A stretch of DNA of 64,000 nucleotides from NCBI GenBank assembly GCA_041558875.1, contig JBFFEL010000004.1:6980-70979 (forward strand). The letters are read 5' to 3'. A model generated the notes under the pieces. It made no database searches. It was given only the letters and a program-made list of their open reading frames with translations, and was not told the origin of the DNA. The position numbers were made by a program, and so were the translations under genes. This DNA comes from Anaerolineales bacterium (GTDB taxonomy: Bacteria > Chloroflexota > Anaerolineae > Anaerolineales > UBA4823). Below are positions 26,882 through 43,402 of the stretch, piece by piece; the stretch's first letter is position 1, and each line of letters starts with the position of its first letter.

Positions 26882-27562
26882 GTGCAAGCAGTATTAATTT
26901 CGCCTTTCGCAGACGAAGCCAACATCCTGCAAGTAATTTTGCAGCAAGCCGGATTCATGGTTCGAGCCACGCACAATTTTGATCAAGCCATTGAATCCTG
27001 GCCAAACAAACCTGCAGATCTTATTCTGATCGTATTGACTGGGGAACATTCTAAATCGTTAACTCAAGTAAAATTGTTACGGGCACATACCGTGGTGCCG
27101 ATTCTACTCATATCCGATTTGCTTCCTGATGACGAACATGTCAATTATCTCGAAGCCGGAGCTGACCTAGTTTTATTCCGGCCATACAGCGTTCGAGCCC
27201 TTTTAGCCCAAATACGCGCCATATTGCGCCGTAGTGCTGGTGTGCCTTTTTTTAGCCTACCTACTCTGACACAGAAAGATGTCATGCTGGATCCTACCGA
27301 CCGAACCGTTCGGGTTGGGGAGCAAGATCCCAAACGTTTGACCCAATTGGAGTTTCGTCTGCTCTACACATTGATGACCCATGTTGGTCAGATTATCCCG
27401 ACTGATAAGATAGTTGAACATGTTTGGGGATATTCAGGCGAAGGCAATCGGGAATTGGTGCGCGGTCTGGTGCAGAGGGTGCGTTCAAAAATCGAAGCTG
27501 AACCCCACAAACCTGAATACATTCTCACAGAAGTCGGTATCGGTTATTATTTCAGCCGCTAG
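26882..27562 (+). CDS. OmpR-family winged-helix regulator with degenerate (pseudo-)receiver domain, paralog 1
   Basis: 226 aa, GTG start with GGAGG. The C-terminal trans_reg_C pattern is LTQLEFRLLYTLM...VWGY...VRGLVQRVRSKIE...GIGYYF. In the receiver, SPFADE replaces the DD pocket, ADLILIVLTG has Val at the phospho-Asp position, and RPYS has Arg at the conserved Lys. Confidence 0.8.
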   Translation: MQAVLISPFADEANILQVILQQAGFMVRATHNFDQAIESWPNKPADLILIVLTGEHSKSLTQVKLLRAHTVVPILLISDLLPDDEHVNYLEAGADLVLFRPYSVRALLAQIRAILRRSAGVPFFSLPTLTQKDVMLDPTDRTVRVGEQDPKRLTQLEFRLLYTLMTHVGQIIPTDKIVEHVWGYSGEGNRELVRGLVQRVRSKIEAEPHKPEYILTEVGIGYYFSR

Positions 27563-27742: not shown

Positions 27743-27931
27743 ATGATTACAGCAACCTGTCCGGAGTGTAAGCATTTGATTAATCTGATTTCATTGCCAG
27801 AAATCGGCAAACTATTTATGTGCGAGAGCTGCGACACAAAGCTCGAAGTAACCTGGCTGTTCCCAGTAATCTTGGACTATCAAGAGTATGAAAAACAGCT
27901 GGCCAGCGATGAGGACAAGAACCTGAAGTAA
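27743..27931 (+). CDS. LysW-like C4 zinc-ribbon small protein
   Basis: 62 aa with CPEC-x17-CESC, then KLEVTWLFPVILDY and the acidic tail QEYEKQLASDEDKNLK. Confidence 0.55.
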   Translation: MITATCPECKHLINLISLPEIGKLFMCESCDTKLEVTWLFPVILDYQEYEKQLASDEDKNLK

Positions 27932-27969
27932 TTGGCTCCATATCTTACACGGCTCACTTTATAGAAGGA

Positions 27970-29319
27970 TTGAAAGTGTTCAACAACAAAATATTCTGGA
28001 TTCTCGGTTATTCACTCGCAATCGTCCTGATTTTTGTGAGTATGGTTTTTGCCTCCTTCTCCCTGCTAAACCTATACCTTAGTTATGATGGACCTTCTGT
28101 ACAAACTCCGAATTCGAATTCGATAACAATCTTTGTCGCCCAAACCGTCGAAGCGGAATTGACCAAACAGGCAGCAGGGTCCACTCCGACTTATACAAAC
28201 ATCCCGGGATCGATTGTAACTGCAACCCCAACTGCTTCGGTTACACCAGAAATCATTACAACAACGAACACGGCTGTTCCTCCCAAGATGATAGTCCCCA
28301 CATTCACCCCGAATTCTGCTGCTTGCAATCAGGCTCAATTTATACGAGATTTATCTGTACAGGATAATTCACTCGTTCCACCAGGTGCTCCGTTCGTCAA
28401 AACCTGGCGCCTTAAAAATATTGGATACTGCACGTGGACAACCGGTTACATGCTGGTTTTTCATAGCGGAAATGCCATGGAGGCAAATCGGAGCATACCG
28501 TTACCGAGAAGCGTGGAGCCTAACCAGACTATCGATATATCAGTACCCATGAAATCGCCCCAAAAGGCGGGAACCTATCGAGGGGATTGGATGTTTAGCG
28601 ATGCTTCTGGTACCAGATTTGGCCTCGGTTCAAATGGAGATCAAACTTTCTGGGTGCAGATCCGAGTCAAGAATTTGGTTAATACGAACTTGGTCTACGA
28701 TTTTGCGGAAAACTCTTGTCATGCAGAGTGGAAAAGCAGTAATGGGATGTTGTCTTGCTTGGGGACTTCAAGCAGCAGTGATGGGTTCGTGATTTTATTG
28801 GATTCTCCACAATTAGAAAACCGCCAGGAAGATGAAATAACTCTCTGGACTCATCCCAATAACAGCAACCGTGGCTGGATAAGCGGGATGTATCCAGAAT
28901 TTATCATCCAACCCAACCAACACTTTAGTGCCTGGGTTGGCTGCCTGGTCGAAAGCAAGGGTTGTAACGTCATTTTCAGGCTGGACTATAAAAATCTCAC
29001 CAATGACAATATCCGCAATCTTGGTGCCTGGAACGAAATTTATGATGGAGAAGTGACCAAAATCGCTCTGGACCTCTCTCAACACGCTGGCAAACATGTT
29101 CGTTTCATACTCACAGTGGAGGTCAACGGTGGTGATCCAACCCGGGCAAACGCTTTTTGGTTTGTGCCAGGGATTGTTGCGGTCTTTTCCCCTACTGCTA
29201 CCCAAATTTTCCCTACAGCGACAATAAATCCAACTTCTGCACCTGCAGCCACTGAAACACCGACCGAAACACCCATACTTACAGAGATACCCCTTGGATC
29301 GGCTATTGGTGGAAATTAA
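27970..29319 (+). CDS. Membrane-anchored protein with NBR1-type Ig-like domain
   Basis: 449 aa with an N-terminal TM and a Thr/Pro-rich linker. FIRDLSVQDNSLVPPGAPFVKTWRLKNIGYCTWTTGYMLVF...GTYRGDWMF matches the NBR1-Ig-like pattern. The C-terminus is Thr/Pro-rich. Confidence 0.6.
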   Translation: MKVFNNKIFWILGYSLAIVLIFVSMVFASFSLLNLYLSYDGPSVQTPNSNSITIFVAQTVEAELTKQAAGSTPTYTNIPGSIVTATPTASVTPEIITTTNTAVPPKMIVPTFTPNSAACNQAQFIRDLSVQDNSLVPPGAPFVKTWRLKNIGYCTWTTGYMLVFHSGNAMEANRSIPLPRSVEPNQTIDISVPMKSPQKAGTYRGDWMFSDASGTRFGLGSNGDQTFWVQIRVKNLVNTNLVYDFAENSCHAEWKSSNGMLSCLGTSSSSDGFVILLDSPQLENRQEDEITLWTHPNNSNRGWISGMYPEFIIQPNQHFSAWVGCLVESKGCNVIFRLDYKNLTNDNIRNLGAWNEIYDGEVTKIALDLSQHAGKHVRFILTVEVNGGDPTRANAFWFVPGIVAVFSPTATQIFPTATINPTSAPAATETPTETPILTEIPLGSAIGGN

Positions 29320-29341
29320 TTTTAGATTGGAGGTGATTTTG

Positions 29342-29689
29342 ATGAAAACAAGATACAGATTTACCCTGATATTTATTGCATTTTTGCTTGCACTAGTAAT
29401 GTTCTTCGGAAACAGAAACGTTTCTGAGGCGCAGTCGGCCATATTTTATTTTCATTGGTCAGCTAATTGTGCAAAAGGTGAACCAGTGACGCTCAAACCA
29501 AAATACGACAAGGCATTTGATTGGACAGATCCATACACAGGAGCTGTAGAAAAAATTGTCCCTTATACGATTAGCTGTAAAACAGGTACTACTAGTGTTA
29601 GCAAATTGTGCAAAGGCTTTGTCTACACCAGGGCTTCAAGGACGGATCCCATGAATAATACACTCGTGTCTTGCTATGGAGTTCCGTAA
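29342..29689 (+). CDS. Small secreted Cys-containing protein, unknown function
   Basis: ATG at 29342 with GGAGGTG SD. The signal peptide is MKTRYRFTLIFIAFLLALVMFFG...SEAQS. The mature part has several Cys. Confidence 0.5.
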   Translation: MKTRYRFTLIFIAFLLALVMFFGNRNVSEAQSAIFYFHWSANCAKGEPVTLKPKYDKAFDWTDPYTGAVEKIVPYTISCKTGTTSVSKLCKGFVYTRASRTDPMNNTLVSCYGVP

Positions 29690-29787
29690 CCGATTTAATT
29701 CATAGGAGAAGAAAGAAATGAAAAAGAAACTGAAACAAGATATTTATTTTTCATTCTAGACCAAAAACACTATTACGGAGGTGAGAA

Positions 29788-30747
29788 ATGAAACATATTA
29801 AGAAAGCAACCCTAATTCTTGTGGCTCTAGCCATCTCCATAGGTTTGGTGTTAACCAATTCTCGACCAGTCTCTGCTGCTGTGGAAGAACCTCAAAAATG
29901 CACCCGGTGGCACACAGTTAATAAAGGCGAGTATCTGTCTATGATCGCTGAACAATACGAAACAAATTGGTATTCCCTGGTTGAGATCAATCAATTGACG
30001 AATCCAAGCCTCATTTACGTAGGCAACCGGTTGTGTATTTTCCACAGCGATTTCTCAACCAAGCCACTGGTAAATAATCCAATAAGTAGCAACAGTGCCA
30101 GAGTATTTGCTACCAGTGTTAAAGAAGATCAGACAGTGACCCTCCAGGGAAAATATTTAGTTGCGAATTCTCGTTACGACATTTATCTGGGTAAATATAA
30201 GACCGATCCAGCGATCAGAATTCCTGTTGGCTCAATCTCTACGGATAAAAATGGAGCCTTCCAAACGACAGTCACTATCCCTAAGAAGCTGTACGATGTA
30301 TTGAAGATTCGCGTCAGCCTAACCAATCAGCGCGGTGATACGAAATCAAACTGGTTCATCAATACTACCAGTTCAGGAAATGTCGGAGGTATTGGTTCTC
30401 CAGAGTTGAGCATAGCTGTCAAGTCTGTCAAGAAAGGCCAATGGGTAAAGATTGAAACGAATAACCTGCCAGCAAAAGTTTCCTTCAAGGTTTATATGAA
30501 GAGATCCGGAGCAAATGACAGAAAATGGGTTTTAGTTGGAACACTCCGTGATTCCAAGGGTGGCGAGGTTGTGGAATCCTTTGAAATTCCAGAATCAATA
30601 AAAGATCGATCAAAATTGGAGATTATGGCAGTAAACGATGCTCTAGATATGGATGCGGGAGCAAGGTTCGATAACATAACTACTAAGGCGCAAATAATCT
30701 CATCGATTAGACTCGATCAGGATACTGCAGTGATAGGTTTAAGGTGA
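29788..30747 (+). CDS. Secreted LysM-domain protein
   Basis: 319 aa with signal peptide and GGAGGTG SD. HTVNKGEYLSMIAEQYETNWYSLVEINQLTNPSLIYVGNRLCI is a LysM motif. The C-terminal region is beta-rich. Confidence 0.75.
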   Translation: MKHIKKATLILVALAISIGLVLTNSRPVSAAVEEPQKCTRWHTVNKGEYLSMIAEQYETNWYSLVEINQLTNPSLIYVGNRLCIFHSDFSTKPLVNNPISSNSARVFATSVKEDQTVTLQGKYLVANSRYDIYLGKYKTDPAIRIPVGSISTDKNGAFQTTVTIPKKLYDVLKIRVSLTNQRGDTKSNWFINTTSSGNVGGIGSPELSIAVKSVKKGQWVKIETNNLPAKVSFKVYMKRSGANDRKWVLVGTLRDSKGGEVVESFEIPESIKDRSKLEIMAVNDALDMDAGARFDNITTKAQIISSIRLDQDTAVIGLR

Positions 30748-30896
30748 GGCATCCCTCAGATGCTGACAGTTGATTTGCTTGAGCAAAAACACGTACTGGA
30801 AAAGAAATGTTGCCAGGAAAGTGATTGCTCAAGCACTATCTTTCAGCAATGCTTTAAAGATTTCACCACAAAACCCATTTTCCTAGGATATTCATC

Positions 30897-33287
30897 GTGC
30901 GCATCGTACTTGAACACATTTGGTCGGATTGGCGATTAAGTCTTGCTGTCACAATATTAATGGTAGCGGTTTTTGGTTTGTTGTGCGCTTGGTTCATGCC
31001 TCGAGGTCCAGTAACAACTTCACAAGCACTGGTTTCAATAGTGTCATCCTTATTCATTGGCATATTGGCTGGTTTTGTTATGGGAACCCGGTGGAGCATG
31101 TTGATCACGCCAGTGGCGTTTATATTTGTATTTGAACTCGCTCGAAATGGAATTAAAGGTCCCACGGTGGACAACATCATCCTCAGCTCCATGTATGGCG
31201 TCCTTGCATTTTCCACGGGTCGCTTATTTCATGGTGTGCTTGTCTTAGCACCGATGATATTAGGTGCCGTTTATGGGGCATGGATCGCATCCAGCGTTGG
31301 AAAAGGTCATATCGTGTCTGTGGGCACCTTCGGTTGGTCAATCACTGGTCTTAGCTCCTTGGCAATCATACTTGTTGTTTTTTTGGTTGCACAACCTGCG
31401 ACTACAAATCCAATAATCAATTCCGGTGGGGAGCCAATCTCTGGCAGTATTGCAGAATTGATCAGTGTCCCAATCGGTGGTCATGAACAGGTACTGATGA
31501 TTAGGGGAAGGAGTGTTGATAATCCGGTTCTTTTATATCTGGCTGGAGGACCTGGTGGTACAGACCTTGGTGCCATGCGTGCAGACGTCACTCTGGAACA
31601 GTATTTCATTGTTGTGACATGGGATCAACGCGGCACCGGTAAGTCTTATGCTGCTCTTGACCCGGTTGAAACGCTGACTTACGAACAAATGGTGTCCGAC
31701 ACGATCGAGGTGACAAATTACCTCCGTGACCGCTTCAATGTAAACAAGATTTACCTTGTAGGTAATTCTTGGGGCTCTATCCTCGGTATACTTGCCGTTC
31801 AACGTCAGCCTGAACTCTTCCACGCTTATGTTGGTACAGGTCAAATGGTCAGCCCAAGGGAAACCGATATCATGTTCTATGAAGATAACCTGAAGTGGGC
31901 TGAACAAACGCACAACGGAAACCTAGTTGATGAGCTGCAACAAATTGGTCTTCCTCCATACGAGAACCTCAAAAATTATGAAACAGCACTTTCCCACGAA
32001 CTCGCCTGGAACCCCTATTCCGGACTCGATACAAGCAAGGAAATGCTATTCAACTTGTTTGTACCCGAAAACTCACTCATGGATCGGATCAACGGGATGC
32101 GAGGTTTGCTCGATACTTTCTCCATCCTTTATCCACAACTACAGGAAATTGACTTTCGGAAGGATGTCCAAAGCATGGACATCCCCATTTATATTGTGAT
32201 TGGCAAGCACGAGGCTCGCGGCCGGGCTGTCTTAGCCAAAGAATGGTTCGAAATGCTTTCAGCTCCGTCAAAAGAGATGATCATTTTCGAACATTCAGGT
32301 CATCGTCCAATATTTGAGGAACCAGCGGAGTTCGCTGCTGTGATGACTCGTATCTTGGAGGACAATAATATCCAATTCTCGAATAATCCAACCCATCCGG
32401 TGTGTTTCGATACTTTTCTTGCTCCTATTGCATTTATGCCAGACAGTGAACGAATTTTGGTTCGCGCTGAATCAGGTGTTCAGATCTTTAATCTAGCAAC
32501 GATGGAGGAAGAATTGTTCCTTGAATCGCCAACAAAACTGAAAAGACCAACTGCGGTTCTGTCATTGAAAGGTGATATGTTAGCCTGGGTACTTGAAGAT
32601 AATTCCATCCAAGTAATCCGGTTATCAGATCAGAGCGTAATTTACACCACACACATCCATTCTGATCCAATCACAAAACTAAGATTTTCTCCGGATGGGT
32701 TGAAACTATACTCAGCCTCACATGATGGTTGGGTGAAGGAATTGAACATTGATGGACAAATAGTAAGCGAATTTCAGCCTTATGGTGGAGAGGTACTCGG
32801 ACTAGGTATTTCCGCAGATGGAGAAACCATTGCTACAATACCTTTCGATGGACCTGTAAAGTTGTGGGATACAGCAAACTATCAAATGCTGACAGATTTG
32901 GGGGGATCGGGTGGATATGATACCTCAGATGTGGCTTTTTCCAGCAACGGTCAATTTATCGCCGCAGATCTAGCAACCGGCCTGTCTGCCTGGGATATCA
33001 GTGATCATTCATTACTTTGGAATGGCATCAACAGCAAGGCATTCGCATTTTCGCCACAAGAAAACCTCTTGGCTTATTCAGATATTAGTAAGAATCATGA
33101 CATTATTCTTAGGTCTCTAGAAGACAAACAAATACTAAATACATTGATCGGCCATCAAGGTCCAGTTTGGGAGCTGATATTCTCACCTGATAGTCAATTG
33201 CTGGCATCCACGGATGGAAATGAATTGCGCATCTGGCGCGTGGATGGTGGCGAGCTCTTGTACATTGGAAAAAGCAGCTGTCCGTAA
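30897..33287 (+). CDS. Membrane-anchored alpha/beta hydrolase (proline iminopeptidase-like) fused to WD40 repeats
   Basis: 796 aa with about 5 N-terminal TM helices. The hydrolase core has LYLAGGPGG, nucleophile elbow GNSWGS and a late FEHSGH. The C-terminus has WD40-like repeats (e.g. GHQGPVWELIFSPDSQLLASTDGNELRIWRV). Confidence 0.75.
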   Translation: MRIVLEHIWSDWRLSLAVTILMVAVFGLLCAWFMPRGPVTTSQALVSIVSSLFIGILAGFVMGTRWSMLITPVAFIFVFELARNGIKGPTVDNIILSSMYGVLAFSTGRLFHGVLVLAPMILGAVYGAWIASSVGKGHIVSVGTFGWSITGLSSLAIILVVFLVAQPATTNPIINSGGEPISGSIAELISVPIGGHEQVLMIRGRSVDNPVLLYLAGGPGGTDLGAMRADVTLEQYFIVVTWDQRGTGKSYAALDPVETLTYEQMVSDTIEVTNYLRDRFNVNKIYLVGNSWGSILGILAVQRQPELFHAYVGTGQMVSPRETDIMFYEDNLKWAEQTHNGNLVDELQQIGLPPYENLKNYETALSHELAWNPYSGLDTSKEMLFNLFVPENSLMDRINGMRGLLDTFSILYPQLQEIDFRKDVQSMDIPIYIVIGKHEARGRAVLAKEWFEMLSAPSKEMIIFEHSGHRPIFEEPAEFAAVMTRILEDNNIQFSNNPTHPVCFDTFLAPIAFMPDSERILVRAESGVQIFNLATMEEELFLESPTKLKRPTAVLSLKGDMLAWVLEDNSIQVIRLSDQSVIYTTHIHSDPITKLRFSPDGLKLYSASHDGWVKELNIDGQIVSEFQPYGGEVLGLGISADGETIATIPFDGPVKLWDTANYQMLTDLGGSGGYDTSDVAFSSNGQFIAADLATGLSAWDISDHSLLWNGINSKAFAFSPQENLLAYSDISKNHDIILRSLEDKQILNTLIGHQGPVWELIFSPDSQLLASTDGNELRIWRVDGGELLYIGKSSCP

Positions 33288-33346
33288 ACAAACCCACGGG
33301 GAGATATTAATTGATTTGAGGAAACATTTTTAAAAGGAAACCTTTT

Positions 33347-34063
33347 ATGAAGAAAAAAATATTTCTAATTGGGTTGGTATCTACCCTCCTTTTAGCAGGC
33401 TGCAATACCAGGGAAGCATCAACCGACCAATCAGGTCAATCATCCATAAGTGTCAGCGGAACTGGCACAGCCAGCGCTGCCCCCGATGTGGTTGACATCC
33501 AAATGGGTGTCGATACTGCGGACACCGATCCAGTCGCGGCTGGCAACCAGAATTCTGAGAAGATGAATGCGATTATCACCGTACTCGGAGAAATGGGAAT
33601 TGCTGATATGGATATCCAGACCATCAATTACAGCATGTGGGTCGAAGATGTCTATGATCAGGATAATCAACCCACTGGTGCAAAACGTTACCGTGTTACC
33701 AACCAGTTGAATATCCGTCTTCGTGATTTATCCCAAATTGGTACATTGATCGAAGAAGCCACTAATGCCGGTGCAACTTATGTATCTGGGATAACCTTCG
33801 GTGTCGCGGATACAACTGAACTGGAACAGGCTGCTCTGGATGAGGCCATTGCTAATGCAAGTCAAAAAGCTGAATGGGTTGCCAACGAGATGGGTGTCAA
33901 TATTGGCTCACTAATAACCTTGATCGAAGGTGGGTTTAACACTCCCCCCATGCCTCTTTTCGCGGAAGAAAGAGGAGTAGGCGGTGGGGGTGAGGTGCCG
34001 ATCTCGCAAGGTCAGTTTAGCGTGTCAGCCCAGGTACAGGTGGTCTACAAATTGATCCCTTGA
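33347..34063 (+). CDS. SIMPL-domain (DUF541) lipoprotein
   Basis: 238 aa with lipobox LLAGC. ISVSGTGTASAAPDVVDIQMGV... and ...GQFSVSAQVQVVYKL are typical SIMPL ends. Confidence 0.8.
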   Translation: MKKKIFLIGLVSTLLLAGCNTREASTDQSGQSSISVSGTGTASAAPDVVDIQMGVDTADTDPVAAGNQNSEKMNAIITVLGEMGIADMDIQTINYSMWVEDVYDQDNQPTGAKRYRVTNQLNIRLRDLSQIGTLIEEATNAGATYVSGITFGVADTTELEQAALDEAIANASQKAEWVANEMGVNIGSLITLIEGGFNTPPMPLFAEERGVGGGGEVPISQGQFSVSAQVQVVYKLIP

Positions 34064-34180
34064 CCTAGTTGGCTAGGAGTCTCTCCAGAACTGACTAACA
34101 ACTTAAAAAAATCTCTCTCGAAATGTATTGCACTAAAAGCAGCTGATCAATTCAAGCTCACGATCGATGAGGTGATCACC

Positions 34181-34651
34181 ATGATTAAGAATTATTTTAT
34201 GATTATATTGGCTTTTGTGCTACTCAGTGCCTGTTACCCAGGTAGGAATGACTCCGAAAAAGCAAATCAGGCAATTACTGACTTCTTCAGCGAATTGTCA
34301 AACGGTAATTATGGAAAAGCGGTGACTCTATATGGCGGAAGTTATGGGATCTTGACAAATTTTAATCCGGATTTGGACGCAAATGATCACGTAGCATTGT
34401 TGAAGAATGGCTGCCAAATCAACGGTTTGCAATGTTTGACTATCCGCACGATAACATTCAACGAGCTTTCAGTATCTGGGGAATATATTTTCACTGTGGA
34501 ATTCAACGATCCTGCTGGAAATCTATTCGTTCTCGAGGCCTGCTGCGGCGAAAATCCAACTACGGTGCCTCAATTCCAGTTTGAGTACCGGGTTGTACAA
34601 GGCAGGGATGGGAAAATGCGGGTTTTGGATTTACCAGTTTACACGCCGTGA
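34181..34651 (+). CDS. Lipoprotein, unknown function
   Basis: ATG at 34181 after GAGGTGA. The signal and lipobox are FVLLSAC. No recognisable family. Confidence 0.45.
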   Translation: MIKNYFMIILAFVLLSACYPGRNDSEKANQAITDFFSELSNGNYGKAVTLYGGSYGILTNFNPDLDANDHVALLKNGCQINGLQCLTIRTITFNELSVSGEYIFTVEFNDPAGNLFVLEACCGENPTTVPQFQFEYRVVQGRDGKMRVLDLPVYTP

Positions 34652-34867
34652 ACTTGTCCATTGAAAAATTAGCGATTGCTTGATGATTTTGCATGATGAT
34701 GGAATAACATGGTTCCCATGGAGAGGGATTTATTGTATAAAAATTCATATGCAAGGAAATAACTTAATACTAGTTTGATATTTTAGAAAGACAGTAATTC
34801 CACATATAAGTATTAAACTTGTACAAATCCAATCTGAAATTCGATAAATATTTGGGTCAATAAAATT

Positions 34868-35392
34868 TTGGAATCAAAGGTACCTTATTTCGAAAAAATG
34901 TTAAAACAAAAATCGATCGCTCGTAAGCAATTTTCCCCTCAAAAGTTAACCTATATCACCGCCAAAGGTCTCGGAAAACTTGTAGATGAATTGGATTACT
35001 TGCGCACCTCAAAACGAATGGAAATGTCCCAGCATTTGCATGACACAATGGGCGAAGCTGAAGATAGCGAATATTTGATTGCCCTCCAGGAACAAGCCTT
35101 TATCGAGGGGCGCATCCATGAATTAGAAGGGCTTTTGGCAAATTATCGGATCATCGAGCCAGGCCATAATAGTGGCAATGTTCAACTAGGCAGTACTGTT
35201 GTGATCAGAGAAAATGGCAAGGACACGGAAACCTATACAATTGTAGGTACTGCAGAAGCAAATCCCAGGGAAGGCTTAATTTCGGATGAGTCACCCCTTG
35301 GAACGGCCCTGCTTGACAGCAAAGTTGGCGATGATATAGAAATCAATGTGCCAGGGGGGGTATTAAAATTCCGGATTGTGGCGGTTCAATAA
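34868..35392 (+). CDS. GreA-like transcript-cleavage-factor homolog, paralog 1 (N-terminal extension, start uncertain)
   Basis: 174 aa. It aligns with GreA throughout: LTYITAKGLGKLVDELDYLRT..., ...SEYLIALQEQAFIEGRIHELEGLL, and C-terminal LISDESPLGTALLDSKVGDDIEINVPGG. Confidence 0.8.
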   Translation: MESKVPYFEKMLKQKSIARKQFSPQKLTYITAKGLGKLVDELDYLRTSKRMEMSQHLHDTMGEAEDSEYLIALQEQAFIEGRIHELEGLLANYRIIEPGHNSGNVQLGSTVVIRENGKDTETYTIVGTAEANPREGLISDESPLGTALLDSKVGDDIEINVPGGVLKFRIVAVQ

Positions 35393-35455
35393 GTTTTTGA
35401 AACTGTATCTAAAACGCCTTAAGGCATATTCAGCAGATAGTAATCCGCGGAAAAA

Positions 35456-35647
35456 ATGAAATTTGCACACTGCCCTGCATGCAATATGATCATTCAACTC
35501 CCGCAAAAAATAAAAGTGCGTGAACTGATCAACTGCCCTCATTGTAATTCCATGCTTGAGTTGGCAAGCCAATATCCCCCTACTTTAGATTGGGCTGAGG
35601 ATCCTCTTGTGCATCCTTCACGCAGGGGCATGAAACGATTATTTTGA
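35456..35647 (+). CDS. LysW-like C4 zinc-ribbon small protein (basic tail)
   Basis: 63 aa with CPAC-x17-CPHC, then MLELASQYPPTLDWAEDP. The C-terminus ...SRRGMKRLF is basic. Confidence 0.5.
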   Translation: MKFAHCPACNMIIQLPQKIKVRELINCPHCNSMLELASQYPPTLDWAEDPLVHPSRRGMKRLF

Positions 35648-35673
35648 AACCATAAAAATAAAGGTAATCTCTA

Positions 35674-36918
35674 ATGGAAATTTACCAATCAACCAAAGCC
35701 AGAATTCTTCCACCCCCTCTGGAGAGAAAACAAGATTCCTGGAGAATCGCAATAATTGCCAATCTGATTGATGGATTTGAACGCAATGCCGACGATCCTC
35801 TAGATGCTGGTGCAGAATTCGATCGCTTGCAAACAATTGAAGCTATCGCAGATGCTCTAGAAAGAGACGGGCACAATGTGTTTTTTTTGGAGGCAAACAG
35901 CACTCTTCCTGAAGCCTTGATGGACGTACGTCCAGATATTTGCTTCAACATCGCTGAAGGGATTCGCGGTGATGGTCGCGAAGCCCAGGTACCAGCTTTA
36001 TGCGAATTGTTGGGTATCCCGTATACCGCCTCCCAGGTGGTTGCTAACGCAATTTCCTTGAACAAGACAATGACCAAGCGCATCTGGCAGCAACAGGGAC
36101 TACCAACGGCACCATATTACGAATTCAACTCGCTGGAAGAAGTTGCTCACGCTGATTTTCGCTTTCCTTTGTTTGCTAAACCATCCCGCGAGGGCACCGG
36201 TATGGGTATCAACACCAGTTCAATAATAAGTAATTATGATCAGCTAATTGAACGCGTTGATTGGCTGCTGAGCAATTACCGGCAGCCAGTGTTGGTGGAG
36301 GAATTCCTACCCGGGCGCGAGTTCACCGTTGGTTTTATCGGAAATCGCGGTCATCCGACCTTCAGGAGGCGTCCAGAATTGTATGATAACGATGGTTATC
36401 ACTGGTTTCCCGTCTTAGAGATCGATACTCTGTCCAGCGTGAGTCCTACCATATACGGACACGATGCCAAGGAGTTAGATATCGGTTCGGAAGGCGCTCC
36501 TAGTTATCTCTGCCCAGCAGATATACCTGAATCCTTACGCGCCAGGCTCATTGACCTGACTCGTCGGGCTGCTGAAGCTTTAGAAGTTCGGGATGTATCC
36601 CGGGTCGATTTCCGGGTGGGGGCTGATGGTGAACCCTATCTGCTGGAAATTAACACTCTCCCGGGACTGAACCCGATCTTGAGTGATTTATGCATCATGG
36701 CTGCCGCTGAAGGGATGTCACATCAAACACTGATTACAGAAATCCTATACCTGGCTGCAGAACGATATCACCTTGGAAATATTCCGGTACGTAGCAACTT
36801 TCAACCAGTAAATTCTCGAAATCATTTTGAAGTGGTTCAACAAAGGATCTCAATAAATAATTCAGACTTACCTTTACATCATGAAAGCGCCAGTAAATAC
36901 GAGCTACCAGATTTTTAA
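35674..36918 (+). CDS. ATP-grasp ligase, D-Ala-D-Ala-ligase-like family
   Basis: 414 aa with GREAQVPALCELLGIPYTAS, LNKTMTKRIW, FPLFAKPSREGTGMGI, VLVEEFLPGREFTVG and RVDFRV...PYLLEINTLPGL. Confidence 0.8.
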   Translation: MEIYQSTKARILPPPLERKQDSWRIAIIANLIDGFERNADDPLDAGAEFDRLQTIEAIADALERDGHNVFFLEANSTLPEALMDVRPDICFNIAEGIRGDGREAQVPALCELLGIPYTASQVVANAISLNKTMTKRIWQQQGLPTAPYYEFNSLEEVAHADFRFPLFAKPSREGTGMGINTSSIISNYDQLIERVDWLLSNYRQPVLVEEFLPGREFTVGFIGNRGHPTFRRRPELYDNDGYHWFPVLEIDTLSSVSPTIYGHDAKELDIGSEGAPSYLCPADIPESLRARLIDLTRRAAEALEVRDVSRVDFRVGADGEPYLLEINTLPGLNPILSDLCIMAAAEGMSHQTLITEILYLAAERYHLGNIPVRSNFQPVNSRNHFEVVQQRISINNSDLPLHHESASKYELPDF

Positions 36919-36950
36919 CCTATACAATTCGAGAATAGGAGAACATATAG

Positions 36951-37184
36951 ATGAAATCCCAGATAAAAACAACCCATAAGGATTCGATTGTTAAGTGCCT
37001 GTTATGTAACAGTATGATAAATCTTGGTTTTAATTACAAAGTCGGTAAATTTATCACCTGCAAGAACTGTGAGATGGTATATGAAATCATTAATATCGAT
37101 CCGGTAATGATTGACTGGCCATATCACGATGATGATTACATCGATAATGATGATCTTTACGATTACGATTACGATTATGATTGA
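36951..37184 (+). CDS. LysW-like C4 zinc-ribbon small protein with Asp/Tyr-rich tail
   Basis: 77 aa with AGGAGA SD. It has CLLC-x17-CKNC, then YEIINIDPVMIDW, then the tail PYHDDDYIDNDDLYDYDYDYD. Confidence 0.6.
   Translation: MKSQIKTTHKDSIVKCLLCNSMINLGFNYKVGKFITCKNCEMVYEIINIDPVMIDWPYHDDDYIDNDDLYDYDYDYD
37161..37181 (+). repeat. Hexanucleotide microsatellite (GATTAC/GATTAT x3.5) encoding the DYDYDYD C-terminus
   Basis: The sequence is gattac gattac gattat gat, immediately before the TGA at 37182-37184. Confidence 0.8.
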
Positions 37185-37397
37185 AAGACATCAAAACAAA
37201 CAATCTAATAAGGTTAAATCGATTCTTTTGCCACAAGTTTATTCCGAAATGAGAGAAGTAAATCTGGAATACGGAGGTAAAGCTCATTCAATCCATCCAG
37301 ACAAGCTGCTGATCGAGTGACGCCTTACGGTTACCCTCATTATTGAGAGAAACATCGAATATCTTCATTGCAGATTTCCCTTCTCTAGTGGAATGAT

Positions 37398-38203
37398 ATG
37401 TTAGATGAATATTTTCATGCAATTCCCTGGCTAAATCAGATCCTTCGAATTTCCCCCTATGTCACCCTCGCCTGGGTAAGATCCGCTCCCTCTAATCGGA
37501 TTATTAATCGATTCAATAGTCATTCGGAATTAACCATTGGTGGAGAACAGCTCCTTTCGGAACGCATACGGACAATCAGGGTTTTGATTGCTGGTTCTAA
37601 AAGCCCGATTGCGTTTGTAACGGCAGCTATATTAATCCTGAGCATGTTTTTGGATTCAGTTACATTGATCTGGATGGTTGGATCGTTCAGCGCAGTCTTT
37701 GGTTTAGGAGCCCGCCCATTAATCAGAGATTACCTCCATGGCATTGGTTATATCTTTGAGAACGAATTCACAGCAGGAGAAAAGATTCAGCTTCCAGGCC
37801 TGTATCCCGTCGAAGGAATGGTAGAAGCCAATTGTCTTTGAGCGACAACGTTCAGGGCACCTTCAGAGAGATGTATACTGTGCCAAAAGGGGAAATTCGT
37901 ACAGTCCGAAACTTCAGTCGGGGTAATTACTCGTTAGCGAATATAACACTAAAATTCTCGGCTAACGATTTGAGCCGGGCCTTGCCTCTCTTGGAAGATT
38001 TCGTACGCGAGGCTGTGAATTTGTTGCCTAATCTCCTTAAACCTTGGCAGGTTATCAGCGAATCTGGGATCATTGGGCAGGAAACAGAGCTAACCTTGGA
38101 TGCAAAAGCGAAATTTGGCAAGGCTTGTGAAATGCGTCCAAATTTGATGGCATTGATCCAAGAACAATTATTGGAGAGGAACATTTCATTAGCCAATTTA
38201 TAG
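37398..38203 (+). pseudogene. Small MscS-like mechanosensitive channel gene split by a frameshift near 37832-37841
   Basis: ORF 37398..37841 ends ...FTAGEKIQLPGLYPVEGMVEANCL*, which is pore helix plus the start of the beta domain. The overlapping ORF 37832..38203, in another frame, continues LSLSDNVQGTFREMYTVPKGEIRTVRNFSRG... with the MscS beta/C-terminal domain. A sequencing error has not been excluded. Confidence 0.5.
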
Positions 38204-39183
38204 TGAGTTGTATGATCCGTTCAATTGTGTTTACCGAAGCGGGTGAGACGCAACCCATAATTGTGGAAAAAATCCCGGAGATATTGAAAAATAAGATAGA
38301 TTTCTTCTGGGTAGACGTTGTTGCTGAACCAGATGAAAACTGTAAAAACCTGTTTCAAGGTGTTTTTAATTTCCACTCACTAGCAATTGATGATGCTCTC
38401 CAAGAAACGCATGTTCCAAAAGTTGATGGTTGGAGCACATACCTCTATATGGTATTGCTCACTGCAAGAAAAGCATCTCAAGATTCCTTTGAGATTCTCA
38501 CACCAGAGTTGGATGTATTCTTAGGCTCAAATTATTTAGTGACATACCACAAAGAGGCAATTGCCAGTGTAGATGCGATTTGGGCTCTTTGCCTGCGAGA
38601 TCAAAGATACATGTCAAAAGGACCAGGATTTATTCTCTATCAAATTTCAGATGAGATTGTTAGCAACACAATGTCAGTAATTGAGGATGCAGAAAATCTA
38701 TTAGATCAGATCGAAGATGTGATCTTTACCAATCCACAACCAGCGATCTTAGAACAAATCTTTTCAGTCAAACGTACATTGCTAGGATTACGAAGTTTCC
38801 TGCTTCTCCAAAGGGAGATTTTTAATAAGCTGGCACGTGGTGATTTTGAACTAATCCCAGACCATGACAGAGTTTACTTCCGAGATGCATACGACCATAT
38901 GGTCCGGGTGCAAGAAATCAATGAAAGTTTACGTGATCTTATCAATAGTGTATTAGAAATTTATCTTTCTGTGGTAAACAATCGGATGAATGAGATCATG
39001 AAGTTGCTAACCATTATTGCTACGATTTTTATCCCACTTTCTTTCTTCACGGGAATTTATGGAATGAATTTTACCTTTATGCCGGAGCTGCAATGGCGAT
39101 GGGGTTATTTCTTTTTTCTAGGTTTTATTGGGCTGATTCTCATTGGTATGTTGATCTTTTTTAGGCGAAAACAATGGATATGA
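38203..39183 (+). CDS. corA: CorA-family magnesium/cobalt transporter
   Basis: 326 aa with two C-terminal TM helices and a YGMNF (GMN) motif. An alternative ATG lies at 38212. Confidence 0.85.
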   Translation: MSCMIRSIVFTEAGETQPIIVEKIPEILKNKIDFFWVDVVAEPDENCKNLFQGVFNFHSLAIDDALQETHVPKVDGWSTYLYMVLLTARKASQDSFEILTPELDVFLGSNYLVTYHKEAIASVDAIWALCLRDQRYMSKGPGFILYQISDEIVSNTMSVIEDAENLLDQIEDVIFTNPQPAILEQIFSVKRTLLGLRSFLLLQREIFNKLARGDFELIPDHDRVYFRDAYDHMVRVQEINESLRDLINSVLEIYLSVVNNRMNEIMKLLTIIATIFIPLSFFTGIYGMNFTFMPELQWRWGYFFFLGFIGLILIGMLIFFRRKQWI

Positions 39184-39256
39184 TGTTTGATGATATCTGT
39201 CCACCCATATAAAAAAAACGAGGCAATAATCATCAATCCCTAATTTAGGCGCATAG

Positions 39257-40429
39257 ATGGTAGAAATTTTTGAAAAGAATACAAATATAAGTTAGCCAGA
39301 GATCTTTTGTTTTACATTGTCGTACTTTTAATAGTTTCTGGATTGACATGTACCTACTACCTCCTAATGCGGTCCTTGGTAATTGCAGCGCTTTTGGCAT
39401 ACCTACTTTATCCAGGAGTAACTTGGATATCTGATCATACACATCTAAACAAAGATATGTAGTTCCTGTGGTCTATATCGTATTCGTGGTTGTTTTGGTT
39501 GTTATCATTATCTAACTTTCACCAATAATTTTTCAGCAGGCAAAGATACTCAGCTTTAGGCTGCAAACTATTCCTAATCAAATAGGCAAATTCGAGACAA
39601 ATGTTGAGATTCTGTTTGGTTTTGAGTTACCCATATTAGCTTTTTGGGATGACATTCAATTTGGCGCATACCAACTGCTAAAACCCGAGAGGGTCTTTCA
39701 AATAATTAGGATTACAACCACGAACATAGTTTGGTTGGTCGTTATATTCGCCACAAGCTTCTATTTACTTAGAGATTGGGAACATTTGTGTGTGGGATTG
39801 GTTTATAAGATTAGCTCCGGCGGAATATGAACCTGATATCCTTCACCTTTACCAGGAGATTAAATCTGTATGGCAGATATTTCTTCGAGGGCAACTCCTG
39901 ATTATGTTCCTGGTAGGTTTACTTTCAGGGTTGGTTGCAGCTGTGATTGGACTTCCAGGCGCTTCCATATTAGGGATTCTTGCGGGAACCCTGGCACTAA
40001 TCCCAACACATGGGCCGGCGATAGCAACTATGATTAACGCTATCGTTGCCTGAACACAGGTATCTACCCACCTATCTTGATTTTTCCAATGGAGTGATAG
40101 TTTTTTTGTCAATCTCTATTTTTCAGTTGGTTCAGATAGTTGAAGGAGTTTGGCTTTCAACACAAATCATGGAGAGAAAGCTGCAATTACATCCAGGTCT
40201 TGTACTGGTTGCTATTATTAATACTTTGATAAGTGTAAGTGCGATGATTGCTTTAATGATCACACCACTGATTGGTTCCTTAGAGATAGTTCTTCGATAT
40301 GTTATTAGAAGAAAACGGGCTGGATTAGCACCTTGGTCAAAGGAAGAATCACTTCAATGGGTTGATGATGATACCTTACCTGATATTCCAGTTATTACCG
40401 AAATGTTTTTTTACACGAAAACGACTTAG
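39257..40429 (+). pseudogene. Decayed AI-2E (PerM/YhhT) family transporter gene with several frameshifts and stops
   Basis: The pieces are in different frames. They read MVEIFEKNTNIS*, LARDLLFYIVVLL...AALLAYLLYPGVTW...*, VPVVYIVFVVVLVVIII*, LSPIIFQQAK...FYLLRDWEHL, WDWFIRLAPAEYEP...LIPTHGPAIATMINAIVA*, and ...IFQLVQIVEGVWLSTQIMERKLQLHPGLVLVAI.... Together they trace one AI-2E-like protein. Confidence 0.55.
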
Positions 40430-40686
40430 TATGCGAGAAGAGTACAGAAACTGACCCTAACTAGGTATATCAACGAATGCAGTATTATTTGAATCTACGG
40501 AATTCGTAAGATAGGAGAAACTTAATATCGATAGTAAAAACTTGAATAAACTCGTGCTCGCAAACACAGGCTGCAGTTACAATCCTATCATTCAATGTAA
40601 AATCATCAAACCACTTCACAAAGATCAAAAATTCTAAATATCAATAATATAACTATTTTTTTATCCCAGGAAATTTTTTAGTTGGG

Positions 40687-40998
40687 TTATCTTTCATCAT
40701 GATCAATAAAATGATTTTTCTTGTCACGACCTAATAATTTTGTTCCATCCCAAAAAAATGCAAAAGCGATAAAAATCAAAATAACAAATGTTCGCATTGT
40801 TTGTGATATTTGGTAATATGGTCTAATAAGATTTTGTTCAGCATACAATAAGGTGAAACCAAGTAAGAATATTCCAAAAAAATATATCAATATACTTTGC
40901 CATTTGCCTTGTTTTAAATTTCCCATTCCAGCAAATAGAATGAAAAATAGATTTGTAAGAAAAGAATCTTTTTTCAACTGAATCCCTCTTAGTTTCAA
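40687..40998 (-). CDS. Small membrane protein (about 3 TM), unknown function
   Basis: 103 aa. Its start overlaps the stop of the RimK-like gene by 4 nt, which suggests co-translation. Confidence 0.45.
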   Translation of the reverse strand: MKLRGIQLKKDSFLTNLFFILFAGMGNLKQGKWQSILIYFFGIFLLGFTLLYAEQNLIRPYYQISQTMRTFVILIFIAFAFFWDGTKLLGRDKKNHFIDHDER

Positions 40999-41924
40999 AA
41001 GGAGTGCAAATACATTTTTTCTTTTGAAGGAATCCCTTCTAACCGAACTTGTACATACTGATAAATTTCCATCGGCACGTTAATTCCGGTTGCAAATTCA
41101 AACCCCTCAAATCCTGGGGCGCAATTGATTTCACAAACTTTATAATTATCGCCATCAAACAGCAGGTCCACACCGGCAATATCCAATCCTAACGCCCTGG
41201 CCGATTCGACAGCCAACCACTCAACAGCTGGAACTAACTCGAAATTCGATACCTTCCCCCCTCTTGAGTAATTTGCTTTGTACATACCTTCTCTTGCGAC
41301 TCTCAACATGCCGCCAATCGCCCTCCCTCCCACAACAATCACGCGAATGTCTTTACCTCGACTTGATGAAATGAATTCTTGAATAATCACATTTGCAGTT
41401 GATCCTTTGGATATCTCAATCAGCTCACCCAAATCCTCCATTTGTCCTCGATTCTCGCATAGGAAAATCCCTCTTCCACGAGAACCGGACACAAGTTTCA
41501 CAATCACGGGATAAGTAAATTCCGCATCCACTTTCTCTACATTAAAAGGAAATTTTGCCAGCATTGTTTTTGGAATAGGAATATTATTCCCAGCCAGACA
41601 TTGAATAGTTGCCAGTTTATCTCTGCCAACTTCAATACTCCGGCTGGGATTCAAGGTGAATATTCCCCCTTGCTCAAGATACCGTAATGCAGATAATGAG
41701 AAGTAGGTTGCGCCTGATCCTAGTCTAGGAATCAGGCAGTCAACATTATTACTGGTCTGTCCTTCATACGGCCTGTCATGGCTTGTATCGCTTGGTACGA
41801 TTAAATCAAAATCCTCTATTGCAAGAAAACTGAAATCAATCCCTGCATCAACTGCTTCTTCTCGAAATCGACGATTTTCGTAACTTTCAATATTTTTGTC
41901 TTTATCTAAGAGCCAAATTTTCAT
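40995..41924 (-). CDS. RimK-family ATP-grasp alpha-L-glutamate ligase-like protein
   Basis: 309 aa, collinear by eye with E. coli RimK. Shared segments are MKIWLL, IPRLGSGATYFSLSALRYLE, RDKLATIQCL, PVIVKLVSGSRGRGIF, IIQEFI...GKDIRVIVVG, ANYSRGG and AGVDLL...VCEINCAPGFEG. Confidence 0.85.
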   Translation of the reverse strand: MKIWLLDKDKNIESYENRRFREEAVDAGIDFSFLAIEDFDLIVPSDTSHDRPYEGQTSNNVDCLIPRLGSGATYFSLSALRYLEQGGIFTLNPSRSIEVGRDKLATIQCLAGNNIPIPKTMLAKFPFNVEKVDAEFTYPVIVKLVSGSRGRGIFLCENRGQMEDLGELIEISKGSTANVIIQEFISSSRGKDIRVIVVGGRAIGGMLRVAREGMYKANYSRGGKVSNFELVPAVEWLAVESARALGLDIAGVDLLFDGDNYKVCEINCAPGFEGFEFATGINVPMEIYQYVQVRLEGIPSKEKMYLHSF

Positions 41925-41932
41925 TTCCGGGT

Positions 41933-42400
41933 CTAAGAAACATTCAGAATGTGTACTGGATAAACTCCCCCTGGTGCCCTGATCAGCACATCATCACCAA
42001 CTTTGTGACCGATCAGGGCACTCCCTAAAGGAGATGCAAAAGAAATCAAACCCCGAACAGGCGCGGCTTCTACCGGCCCAACAATTGTATAGCTCACCGG
42101 TTCCTCACCATTTTCAGAAATCATAACCTTTGAACCGATTTCGATCACTCCACCATTTTCTTGATTCTCAATGATGATCGGGTTTGAAAGTAAGATCTCC
42201 AAATCTTGAATGCGGCCCTCAATGAATGCCTGTTGTTCTTTTGCCATGGCAAATTCGGGATCCGTATCACCATCGTTCTCATTACCACCATTTGATTCCC
42301 TCAGCAGCGCGGCAATTTCCTGGCGTTTCACATTCCGTAAGTATTCAAGCTCACCAAGTAATTTTTCATAACCGGATGAAGTTAAATATGTTGGTGGCAT
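41933..42400 (-). CDS. GreA-like transcript-cleavage-factor homolog, paralog 2
   Basis: 155 aa with LTSSGYEKLLGELEYLRNVKRQEIAALL, ...PEFAMAKEQQAFIEGRIQDLEILLSN and C-terminal LISFASPLGSALIGHKVGDDVLIRAPGG. The gene ends 8 nt upstream of the RimK-like gene. Confidence 0.8.
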   Translation of the reverse strand: MPPTYLTSSGYEKLLGELEYLRNVKRQEIAALLRESNGGNENDGDTDPEFAMAKEQQAFIEGRIQDLEILLSNPIIIENQENGGVIEIGSKVMISENGEEPVSYTIVGPVEAAPVRGLISFASPLGSALIGHKVGDDVLIRAPGGVYPVHILNVS

Positions 42401-42484
42401 TTCATCAACTCCTTAACGCTAAATTTCCTGATATTTGTTAAAAACAAGGGAGATACTGACCATTAAATCTTGTTTTACGAAAGG

Positions 42485-42892
42485 TTAGTTTAAGTATTCA
42501 TCCAGATGATCTTCAAAGGTATCTTCGTCACCAAAATAGTAATCAAAGCCCCCATCGTATGGCCAGTCTAGCTCGAGAGGGATCAAGGAGACAATTTCCA
42601 ATTCCGCATCACAACCAGAACACAACACTTTACTACCAACCTTCATTTGCGATGATCCAATCTGAACCATATCCTTACATAACGGGCACCTACCATTACT
42701 CGCTTTTTTTACTCGTTCTCTGCCATTTGAATCAAAATGTTCATCGTAATATATCCAATCCAATTCAATCGGATTGGTGTTGACAACTTCTAGAAGTGCT
42801 TCACAAGATGGACAGATAGCTCGTTCAAGAAACTTAACTTTTTTTCCTAGTTCTATACTCTCTTCGCATATCGGACATTGCGCTCTTATCAT
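42485..42892 (-). CDS. Tandem double LysW-like zinc-ribbon protein
   Basis: 135 aa. Module 1 is CPIC-x17-CPSC EALLEVVNTNPIELDWIYYDEH. Module 2 is CPLC-x18-CSGC DAELEIVSLIPLELDWPYDGGFDYYFGDEDTFEDHLDEYLN. Confidence 0.6.
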   Translation of the reverse strand: MIRAQCPICEESIELGKKVKFLERAICPSCEALLEVVNTNPIELDWIYYDEHFDSNGRERVKKASNGRCPLCKDMVQIGSSQMKVGSKVLCSGCDAELEIVSLIPLELDWPYDGGFDYYFGDEDTFEDHLDEYLN

Positions 42893-42950
42893 CGCTCATC
42901 CTTTCATGGATATCTTTCTCCGAAGGAAACAAACAATCGAAGTATGGGCT

Positions 42951-43178
42951 TTATATGCCTTTCCAGTCTTTATCCCAGAATTCGAATTCATCGAACGCAT
43001 ATCCACTTTCGTCTGGGACATATATTAGATCCAACACAATAGGGTCAAGGTTGATAATCTCTACCTGTTCATCACAGATTGAACAAAGTATATATTGGCC
43101 AATCTTTGGGTTTTCCCCAATAGATATTTTCTCTCCACAGGAAGGACATCGCGACATTCGTTTCTTAATAGATTTCAT
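42951..43178 (-). CDS. LysW-like C4 zinc-ribbon small protein
   Basis: 75 aa with CPSC-x17-CSIC DEQVEIINLDPIVLDLIYVPDESGYAFDEFEFWDKDWKGI. Confidence 0.6.
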   Translation of the reverse strand: MKSIKKRMSRCPSCGEKISIGENPKIGQYILCSICDEQVEIINLDPIVLDLIYVPDESGYAFDEFEFWDKDWKGI

Positions 43179-43210
43179 AGTTAATACTCCTACGAGTAAT
43201 ACGACTGGGG

Positions 43211-43402
43211 CTACTCGATTAAAAGCTTAATGGATTGATCAGGATTAACCGAATTATCCTCAACCAAATCTAGAGTGAGTGGATATAACCAAGTTATTTC
43301 GAAATTGTTGTGGCAATGGGGGCAGGAGATTCGACTATTAATGTATGGTGCTTCGTCTGTGATTTCAAACTCTTTCAGGCAAGAGGGGCAGTTTGTTACC
43401 AT
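43211..43402 (-). CDS. LysW-like C4 zinc-ribbon small protein ending in Glu
   Basis: 63 aa with CPSC-x17-CPHC HNNFEITWLYPLTLDLVEDNSVNPDQSIKLLIE. It is the only member with a C-terminal Glu, as in LysW and ribosomal protein S6. Confidence 0.6.
   Translation of the reverse strand: MVTNCPSCLKEFEITDEAPYINSRISCPHCHNNFEITWLYPLTLDLVEDNSVNPDQSIKLLIE

Follow-up and report, generated by a model that had tools for sequence, protein, structure and literature searches.

Small proteins with a LysW-type zinc ribbon and charged tails in a conserved gene neighbourhood of Anaerolineales

We analysed a stretch of 64,000 nucleotides from an Anaerolineales bacterium of the Chloroflexota (GenBank assembly GCA_041558875.1, contig JBFFEL010000004.1, positions 6,980–70,979 of the forward strand; hereafter, the window), in which six small genes, termed A to F, encode seven modules of the kind found in LysW, the amino-group carrier protein of lysine and arginine synthesis. 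All six belong, as paralogues, to a large family of the Chloroflexota in which a head with the LysW fold is joined to a disordered, strongly charged tail, and they do not encode lysine or arginine amino-group carriers. To our knowledge, the sole characterised use of this fold is LysW itself, a protein-sized protecting group that is loaded by an ATP-grasp ligase, and the function of the small proteins described here is probably new. The explanation that we tentatively favour, on the basis of homology and gene order, is that they are regulator-controlled small proteins whose disordered tails would be substrates, carriers or adaptors of an ATP-grasp ligase resembling D-alanine–D-alanine ligase (Ddl), which is encoded among them.

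Seven LysW-fold modules in six small genes

The six open reading frames (ORFs), their seven modules and their tails read as they had been quoted, position by position, in a preliminary description of this DNA made from the sequence alone. Three genes are on the plus strand: A (27743–27931; 62 amino acids (aa)), B (35456–35647; 63 aa) and C (36951–37184; 77 aa, with an Asp/Tyr-rich tail). The other three are on the minus strand: D (42485–42892; 135 aa), in which two modules are separated by a basic linker and followed by an acidic/aromatic tail, E (42951–43178; 75 aa, with an acidic/aromatic tail) and F (43211–43402; 63 aa). Every module follows the motif CxxC-x17/18-CxxC, then [LFYV]E[VIL]-x4-P-x2-[LI]-D-[WLY], and the four Cys, the Glu, the Pro and the Asp are invariant in an alignment of all seven. 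Of the 524 ORFs in the window that encode 35 aa or more, a strict regular expression for this layout picked out exactly these six, and it matched zero ORFs in 30 shuffles of the window. The tails in the window are short and at most moderately acidic, those of A, B and F being nearly neutral or basic. An E[VI]TWL[FY]P motif marks the A/F subtype, to which A (with a near-neutral tail) and F belong; the B-type tail is conserved and non-acidic in the B-type alignment (LDWAEDPxVxSSRRxFxKLY), and D-type proteins form more than 45 clusters at 90% identity. In one related locus (L100, 2194–2676; related loci are given by L numbers throughout), the two modules of D are encoded by two adjacent single-module genes, which indicates gene fusion or fission.

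Family, profile and structure searches bore out the proposal that the modules are zinc ribbons of the LysW type. Zn_ribbon_LysW (PF21344) was the top Pfam match for A, B, C, D and E; its gathering score of 27 was reached by A (27.0 bits), B (34.9 bits), E (30.2 bits) and D (52.8 bits, in two stretches), and C (20.4 bits) and F (17.9 bits), which scored under it, were placed through profiles. A profile of the A/F type, built from orthologues, matched Thermus LysW (3wwl) at E = 6e-9; the best PDB match of the C-type profile was likewise LysW, at a non-significant E of 0.016. Alignment of the A/F-type and C-type profiles to the acidic single-module members of the family with hhalign gave probabilities of 98.9% and 99.1%, respectively. 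In a phmmer search, D matched the LysW chains 5k2m_E and 3wwl_A. The AlphaFold2 model of D contains two beta zinc-ribbon modules (predicted local distance difference test score (pLDDT), 75–86), with a linker (residues 49–62) and a tail (residues 113–134) that are both disordered (pLDDT <50). Structure comparison with LysW covers D alone among the six proteins; the six best PDB matches of its model in Foldseek were all LysW chains (TM-score on the target, 0.74–0.90; probability, 1.0). These searches show that all seven modules share the LysW zinc-ribbon fold.

The genes had also been described as detached from any carrier pathway, and we found no LysX/Y/Z/J/K set within the 64 kb. A Pfam survey of ORFs of at least 150 aa detected no amino-acid kinase, semialdehyde dehydrogenase, class-III aminotransferase or homocitrate synthase in the window, and no LysZ, LysY, LysJ or LysK was found within the window or in related loci; the sole M20 peptidase of the window (22626–23804) belongs to the TIGR01891 amidohydrolases and is neither LysK nor ArgE. 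The proteins themselves are also unlike canonical carriers, as had been suspected. Their LysW equivalog scores reached at best 40.3 bits (D, with two modules) and at most 30.3 bits for single modules, against cutoffs of 53.2 (TIGR01206) and 75 (NF041070). Among the six, F is the one protein that ends in Glu, in agreement with the earlier reading, and a conserved C-terminal Glu or EDWGE motif was found in no subtype: the last residue of D-type proteins is N, Y, D, F, G or H, with one orthologue lacking the tail altogether, the terminal residue also varies within the A/F, B and C types, and an ending of the form [DE]W[GAS]E occurs in 1 of the 150 best family representatives. What the six proteins share with characterised LysW and ArgW proteins (Thermus thermophilus 3wwl, Thermococcus kodakarensis 5k2m and Sulfolobus tokodaii 3vpb) is the fold, the CxxC...CxxC-LEV-x4-P-x2-L motif, a size of approximately 55–75 aa per module, a head that is followed by a flexible tail, and an ATP-grasp ligase gene next door. 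Beyond their sub-cutoff scores, their endings and the missing LysZ/LysY/LysJ/LysK, they differ in forming seven modules of five subtypes, with tandem modules in one gene, in having a partner ligase of the Ddl type rather than the LysX/RimK type, and in being embedded among regulators and GreA paralogues. LysW-type carriers have been recruited beyond lysine and arginine synthesis in the secondary metabolism of Streptomyces, where they keep LysX/Z/Y/J-like enzymes and a terminal Glu; neither those enzymes nor a conserved terminal Glu was found here.

Conserved operons and the two ATP-grasp ligases

The six genes lie in three operon-like units: DHH_L–RR_L–A, GreA_L–B–Ddl-like–C and RR_R–F–E–D–GreA_R–RimK–p103 (DHH, DHH/DHHA1 phosphoesterase; RR, OmpR-family regulator; GreA, GreA/GreB-family paralogue; Ddl-like and RimK, ATP-grasp ligases). 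The gaps between the four genes of the GreA_L unit are 64, 27 and 33 bp. The units make up two inverted arms of old paralogues, with identities of 55% between the DHH proteins, 64% between the regulators and 50% between the GreA proteins. The window is identical to one JGI metagenome contig, and its named relatives belong to Anaerolineales or Chloroflexota; proteins of L015 (CP070785.1, the 3.27-Mb chromosome of a Chloroflexota metagenome-assembled genome) are 96–99% identical to those of the window. In L017 (CP070764.1), 10 kb suffice to hold the three units, which are collinear there. The order DHH–RR–A is kept in L009 and L017, and DHH–RR–LysW-like recurs in L009, L017, L056 and L100; orthologues of E occur in L007, L015 and L017, those of F in L007, L015, L016, L017 and L100, and those of C adjoin the Ddl-like gene in L007, L015 and L017. 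These comparisons show that the three units are conserved across Anaerolineales despite rearrangements, and that the subtypes A/F, B, C, D and E reflect an old diversification, each of them being conserved.

Both ATP-grasp genes noted in the preliminary description are present, and they fared differently as candidate partners. The Ddl-like ligase (35674–36918, plus strand; 414 aa) matches Dala_Dala_lig_C (PF07478) at 6.7e-29 and lies under every NCBIfam Ddl cutoff (among them 171.9 versus 243, and 146.7 versus 245.65). The alignment with DdlB matches the Mg/ATP catalytic residues but leaves the N-terminal D-Ala1 region unaligned, and an insert of approximately 25 aa sits at the omega-loop; judged by these sequence features, the enzyme does not appear to be a true D-Ala–D-Ala ligase. 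It is 64–83% identical across many Anaerolineales. The B–Ddl–C arrangement or an equivalent is kept in L015, L017, L007, L098, L099 and L100, with B–Ddl–C or Ddl–C retained within the clade (L015, L017 and L007) and a LysW-like gene directly 5′ of the Ddl-like gene in L015, L017, L098, L099 and L100. The association also held in the reverse direction: look-ups that started from three divergent ligase homologues (65–69% identity) led in all three cases to loci with three to five LysW-like genes, one of them directly upstream. The Ddl-like ATP-grasp enzyme is the conserved candidate for an enzymatic partner of the family.

The RimK-family alpha-L-glutamate ligase (40995–41924, minus strand; 309 aa), by comparison, is a lineage-restricted accessory rather than a conserved partner. 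It passes the family model TIGR00768 (226.8 versus a cutoff of 143) and falls under the equivalog cutoffs for RimK (169 versus 331) and LysX (153 versus 275.6). The full-length protein is restricted to window-identical contigs and a few close relatives (P0241–P0243, 82–85% identical), in one of which (L103) the gene again directly follows a GreA gene; L007, L008 and L015 carry a remnant of 117–120 aa, and the gene is absent from L016 and L017. The ligase itself belongs to a widespread clade, with 63% identity to a Ferroglobus protein, and in its other contexts this clade is not accompanied by LysW-like genes, as in L101, where no LysW-like ORF was found near a 64%-identical relative. Polyglutamylation of ribosomal protein S6 by RimK offers a parallel, with a RimK-family ligase (above the TIGR00768 cutoff) encoded beside small proteins with acidic C-terminal regions. 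Here, however, the ligase is under the RimK equivalog cutoff, most relatives keep the small genes but have a truncated ligase or none, and the tails lack a Glu–Glu end; we rejected the proteins as RimK–S6-type substrates because the pairing with RimK is not conserved and that end is missing.

To look beyond the close relatives, we scanned metagenomes with an alignment of acidic-tail single-module relatives (A4) and analysed 80 of the 227 confirmed places, a set that is biased towards acidic single-module members; a broad alignment of 16 sequences (A3) was too diverse. A genome scan with a D-type alignment returned three species representatives only, and the genome-wide distribution rests on metagenomes. 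LysW-fold ORFs with tails rich in D, E, W and Y, some of them extremely long, are encoded in 77 of the 80 metagenome loci, with one to four LysW-like copies per locus. After removal of redundancy (71 loci), Ddl-like genes were present in 10 loci, GreA genes in 3 and RimK genes in none. A gene resembling KamA was found in 16 loci overall; where 600 bp or more of downstream sequence was available (42 loci), it lay directly downstream of the LysW-like gene in 12. The product of the KamA-like gene passes the equivalog cutoff for the lysine 2,3-aminomutase AblA (549.8 versus 525.4). In distant loci the order LysW-like, AblA, Ddl-like recurs, sometimes followed by a second Ddl-like gene. An operon comprising a hyper-acidic LysW-fold gene, AblA and one or two Ddl-like genes is conserved in L044, L038, L041, L032, L098 and L104; a GNAT gene lies 5′ in L047 and L104, and L047 also has saccharopine-dehydrogenase-like and class-III aminotransferase genes 5′. 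These sister loci, unlike the window, recall the AblA/AblB pathway to N-epsilon-acetyl-beta-lysine, with an AblA over its equivalog cutoff and sometimes a GNAT gene nearby. They differ from it in that AblA has a hyper-acidic LysW-fold gene on one side and one or two Ddl-like ligases on the other, an arrangement that we did not find in the literature searched.

On homology and bidirectionally conserved synteny, a functional link between the small proteins and the Ddl-like enzyme is, we infer, the best-supported mechanism. The link is suggested by the fold, the conserved subtypes, the tight spacing of B, Ddl and C, the synteny of the Ddl-like gene, the reciprocal look-ups and the loci with AblA, together with an enzyme that keeps its Mg/ATP residues but not its D-Ala1 site; the collinear units of L017 and the upstream regulator described below support the explanation as a whole. 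LysW and LysX would be the model for how the B and C types, at least, work with the Ddl-like ligase: the zinc-ribbon head would dock on the ligase and the flexible tail would reach its active site, where the tail would either receive an amide-linked amine on a carboxylate or present the tail of a partner. In the sister lineages, the amine donor would probably be beta-lysine, made by AblA, whose gene separates that of the small protein from that of the ligase. RimK would be an optional extra that could polyglutamylate a tail, and is predicted to be dispensable because most relatives have lost it. Expression would most likely be controlled by the adjacent regulator.

Several observations weigh against this explanation. 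No subtype has a conserved C-terminal residue for ligation or an EDWGE-like motif; the tail of B, whose link to the ligase is the tightest of all members, is basic rather than acidic, and the tails of some relatives are so basic that they could not be carboxylate substrates. Locus L012 retains GreA–B–C without the ligase, the ligase is not seen in half of the family loci, and many of these have the regulator alone or nothing nearby. Moreover, shared ancestry may account in part for the synteny among related Anaerolineales. The suggestion in the preliminary description, which noted two adjacent ATP-grasp ligases, that the small proteins form a family of ligase substrates or adaptors is therefore retained in part: the Ddl-like enzyme is tied to them by synteny in the clade and by the AblA-bearing order in distant relatives and RimK is not, whereas the absence of a conserved tail end, the ligase-free L012 and the identity of the commonest neighbours, an Asp-less regulator and GreA, do not favour it.

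Asp-less regulators, GreA paralogues and competing explanations

The commonest neighbour of the LysW-like genes is an OmpR-type regulator without the phospho-acceptor Asp. In the window, RR_L (26882–27562, plus strand), which is directly followed by A, has Val at this position in a column analysis, and RR_R (43606–44301, minus strand), after which F is the first gene, has Thr. The winged-helix domain of these regulators is intact (Trans_reg_C at 4e-21 in RR_R), and the receiver domain of RR_R scores 26.2 against a Pfam gathering score of 30.2. The closest solved relative of RR_R is KdpE (8e-30), in which the phospho-acceptor D52 stands opposite the Thr. We aligned RR_L, RR_R and 24 homologues encoded beside LysW-like genes (L018–L097) with MAFFT, numbering the phospho-acceptor column on what we take to be the PhoB sequence; the KdpE alignment independently gives the same result. 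None of the 26 regulators has the Asp, which is replaced by Ala in 19, Ser in 4, Val in 2 and Thr in 1 (Ala 19, Ser 4 and Val 1 among the 24 homologues), and each of the 26 carries Arg in place of the conserved receiver Lys. The Asp-less regulators are a distinct, well-conserved Chloroflexota clade, and are predicted to be phosphorylation-independent because the phospho-acceptor is absent. Atypical, phosphorylation-independent regulators of the OmpR/PhoB family exist, such as HP1043/HsrA, ChxR and NblR, which also combine a winged-helix domain with a receiver in which the phospho-acceptor Asp and the acidic pocket are replaced; the Chloroflexota clade differs in its invariant Lys-to-Arg replacement and its systematic pairing with LysW-fold genes. 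Of the 48 loci in which 600 bp or more of upstream sequence was available, 25 have a homologue of RR_L and RR_R (E 1e-50 to 1e-79) directly upstream of the LysW-like copies or between them.

GreA paralogues also recur in these operons. GreA_L (34868–35392, plus strand; Pfam GreA_GreB_N and GreA_GreB) is the first gene of its unit, and GreA_R (41933–42400, minus strand), identified in family searches, follows D. Both score slightly under the GreA cutoffs, have E. coli GreA as their closest PDB match and keep the acidic coiled-coil tip approximately. The synteny of GreA_L is kept in L012, L015 and L017, and GreA_R is kept after D in L007, L015, L016, L017 and L100; in all, a GreA gene follows LysW-like genes in L007, L012, L013, L015, L016, L017, L053, L061, L087 and L100.

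This setting underlies the main rival explanation, which we consider possible but less probable: the small proteins would be transcription accessory factors, the charged tails of which bind the Asp-less regulator, the GreA paralogue or RNA polymerase. The tails would mimic nucleic acid or a phospho-protein and replace phosphorylation as the input of the regulator, and the ATP-grasp enzymes would be incidental or would tune the tails. In its favour, the most frequent neighbour is a regulator that never has the phospho-acceptor Asp, GreA paralogues occur in the same operons in at least ten lineages, a DHH phosphoesterase recurs upstream, and tails that are hyper-acidic or very basic fit electrostatic binders. 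However, a factor encoded beside a gene usually regulates that neighbour rather than binding its product, and a terminator-like hairpin (43582–43565) lies after RR_R, between it and F. Known RNA polymerase-binding zinc ribbons resemble the model of D only at chance level (Foldseek ranks 9–23, probability ≤0.13), and the conserved link to the Ddl-like enzyme and AblA is left unexplained. The ligase-linked and transcription-partner explanations are compatible with each other. A rather unlikely further possibility would make the charged tails templates for multi-site side-chain amidation by the ATP-grasp enzyme, with beta-lysine as the amine in lineages with AblA and another amine here; such amidation would yield a polymer templated by the ribosome, cyanophycin-like or able to switch charge, or equivalently a multi-site amino-group carrier, expressed under the Asp-less regulator, and the modified tail would feed back on transcription through the GreA paralogues or RNA polymerase.

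The remaining explanations are unlikely. Cation buffering or osmoadaptation, in which polyacidic tails would be counter-ions or stores for K+, Mg2+ or polyamines, is improbable: CorA and MscS-like genes recur near the cluster, the closest solved relative of the regulator is KdpE, and AblA (of the osmolyte beta-lysine) and GNAT genes adjoin hyper-acidic members in other lineages, but the tails in the window are short and moderately acidic at most, simple ion buffering needs no conserved zinc-ribbon head, and the nearby transporter genes are partly decayed. We give a little less credence still to precursors of peptides that are produced by ribosomes and modified after translation (RiPPs), with the zinc-ribbon head serving as a leader or for recognition and the ATP-grasp enzymes modifying the variable tail, which would be the core. 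The combination of a conserved head with hypervariable tails, the several precursor-like paralogues per locus, the ATP-grasp enzymes nearby and the radical-SAM enzyme of other lineages would suit such a system, but no protease or ABC exporter was found in the cluster, the ATP-grasp enzymes are of the Ddl and RimK types rather than the graspetide type, the radical-SAM enzyme is a pyridoxal-phosphate-dependent aminomutase over the AblA equivalog cutoff, subtype tails such as that of B are conserved rather than hypervariable, and the genes lie in a housekeeping-like, regulator-linked context. Graspetide precursors in particular were rejected, the cluster having no graspetide-type ATP-grasp maturase, protease or exporter. 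Finally, it is very improbable that the proteins are canonical LysW or ArgW carriers serving a lysXYZJK pathway elsewhere in the 3.27-Mb genome: LysW is the best match in every family and structure search and a RimK/LysX-family ligase adjoins, but all modules score under the equivalog cutoffs, the EDWGE motif and conserved terminal Glu are both absent, as is a LysW-type ending from nearly all of the best family representatives, the RimK-like protein is under the LysX cutoff and lost by most relatives, and the seven modules sit in conserved non-metabolic operons.

The surrounding sequence and the wider family

The other genes of the two arms are DHH_L (25858–26871, plus strand), a DHH/DHHA1 phosphoesterase gene 5′ of RR_L, its paralogue DHH_R (45355–46368, minus strand), 5′ of RR_R, both identified in family searches, and p103 (40687–40998, minus strand), the last gene of the right-arm operon, which encodes a small predicted membrane protein with no Pfam or NCBIfam match and is kept after GreA_R in L007, L016 and L017. 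The region of the LysW-like, regulator and GreA genes is spanned by a segment of low GC content (0.38–0.45 at 24000–46000, against approximately 0.50 in both flanks). Scans of the window for tRNA genes and Rfam families gave no matches, and a promoter and terminator scan found fewer sites in the window than in shuffles, the hairpin after RR_R being the one site that seems notable. Between C and the right-arm operon, an MscS-like channel gene (37398–38203) is split by a frameshift into ORFs of 147 and 123 aa, is intact (270 aa) in L012, and is also split in the independent assemblies L001 and L002, so that the split is probably real; an AI-2E/PerM-type transporter gene (39300–40430) is broken into several short ORFs and is intact (375 aa) in L099. 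In L015 (10968–11568), where RimK is cut to approximately 120 aa, a deletion relative to the window has removed p103, the AI-2E fragments, CorA, the 123-aa MscS-like ORF and part of the 147-aa ORF. Genes for a secreted N_BRCA1_IG-domain protein (27970–29319) and a LysM protein (29788–30747) recur near the cluster in L017 and L100, and a 796-aa ORF (30897–33287) combines membrane segments, an alpha/beta-hydrolase domain and WD40 beta-propeller repeats. An HD-GYP-type response regulator beside a 942-aa PAS histidine kinase (11262–15083) lies 5′ of the low-GC region and is unrelated to it.

A hidden Markov model search of the family yielded 2,061 clusters at 50% identity (E ≤1e-3), or 462 at E ≤1e-10. 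Members include two- and three-module proteins, with tails that are very acidic or very basic, and no informative domain fusions were present among the 150 best family representatives. One candidate, P0443 (1330 aa, with 12 matching stretches), was rejected as an unrelated repeat protein that matches only through its repeats; its N-terminal part comprises other regions, which are followed by approximately 12 tandem CxxC...CxxC zinc-ribbon repeats. No description of the LysW-fold family or its gene neighbourhood was found in the literature searched. The family, of approximately 2,000 clusters at 50% identity, has kept the LysW head and shed all the features that connect LysW with the synthesis of lysine and arginine. 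Its tails have diversified, its genes have multiplied within genomes, and these now lie next to Asp-less regulators, GreA paralogues and a non-canonical Ddl-type ligase, and in other lineages also next to AblA. Should the tails indeed be substrates of the ligase, a major phylum that has received little study would turn out to possess a new carrier chemistry or kind of protein modification; should they instead bind the regulator, the signal input of widespread, phosphorylation-blind response regulators would be accounted for.

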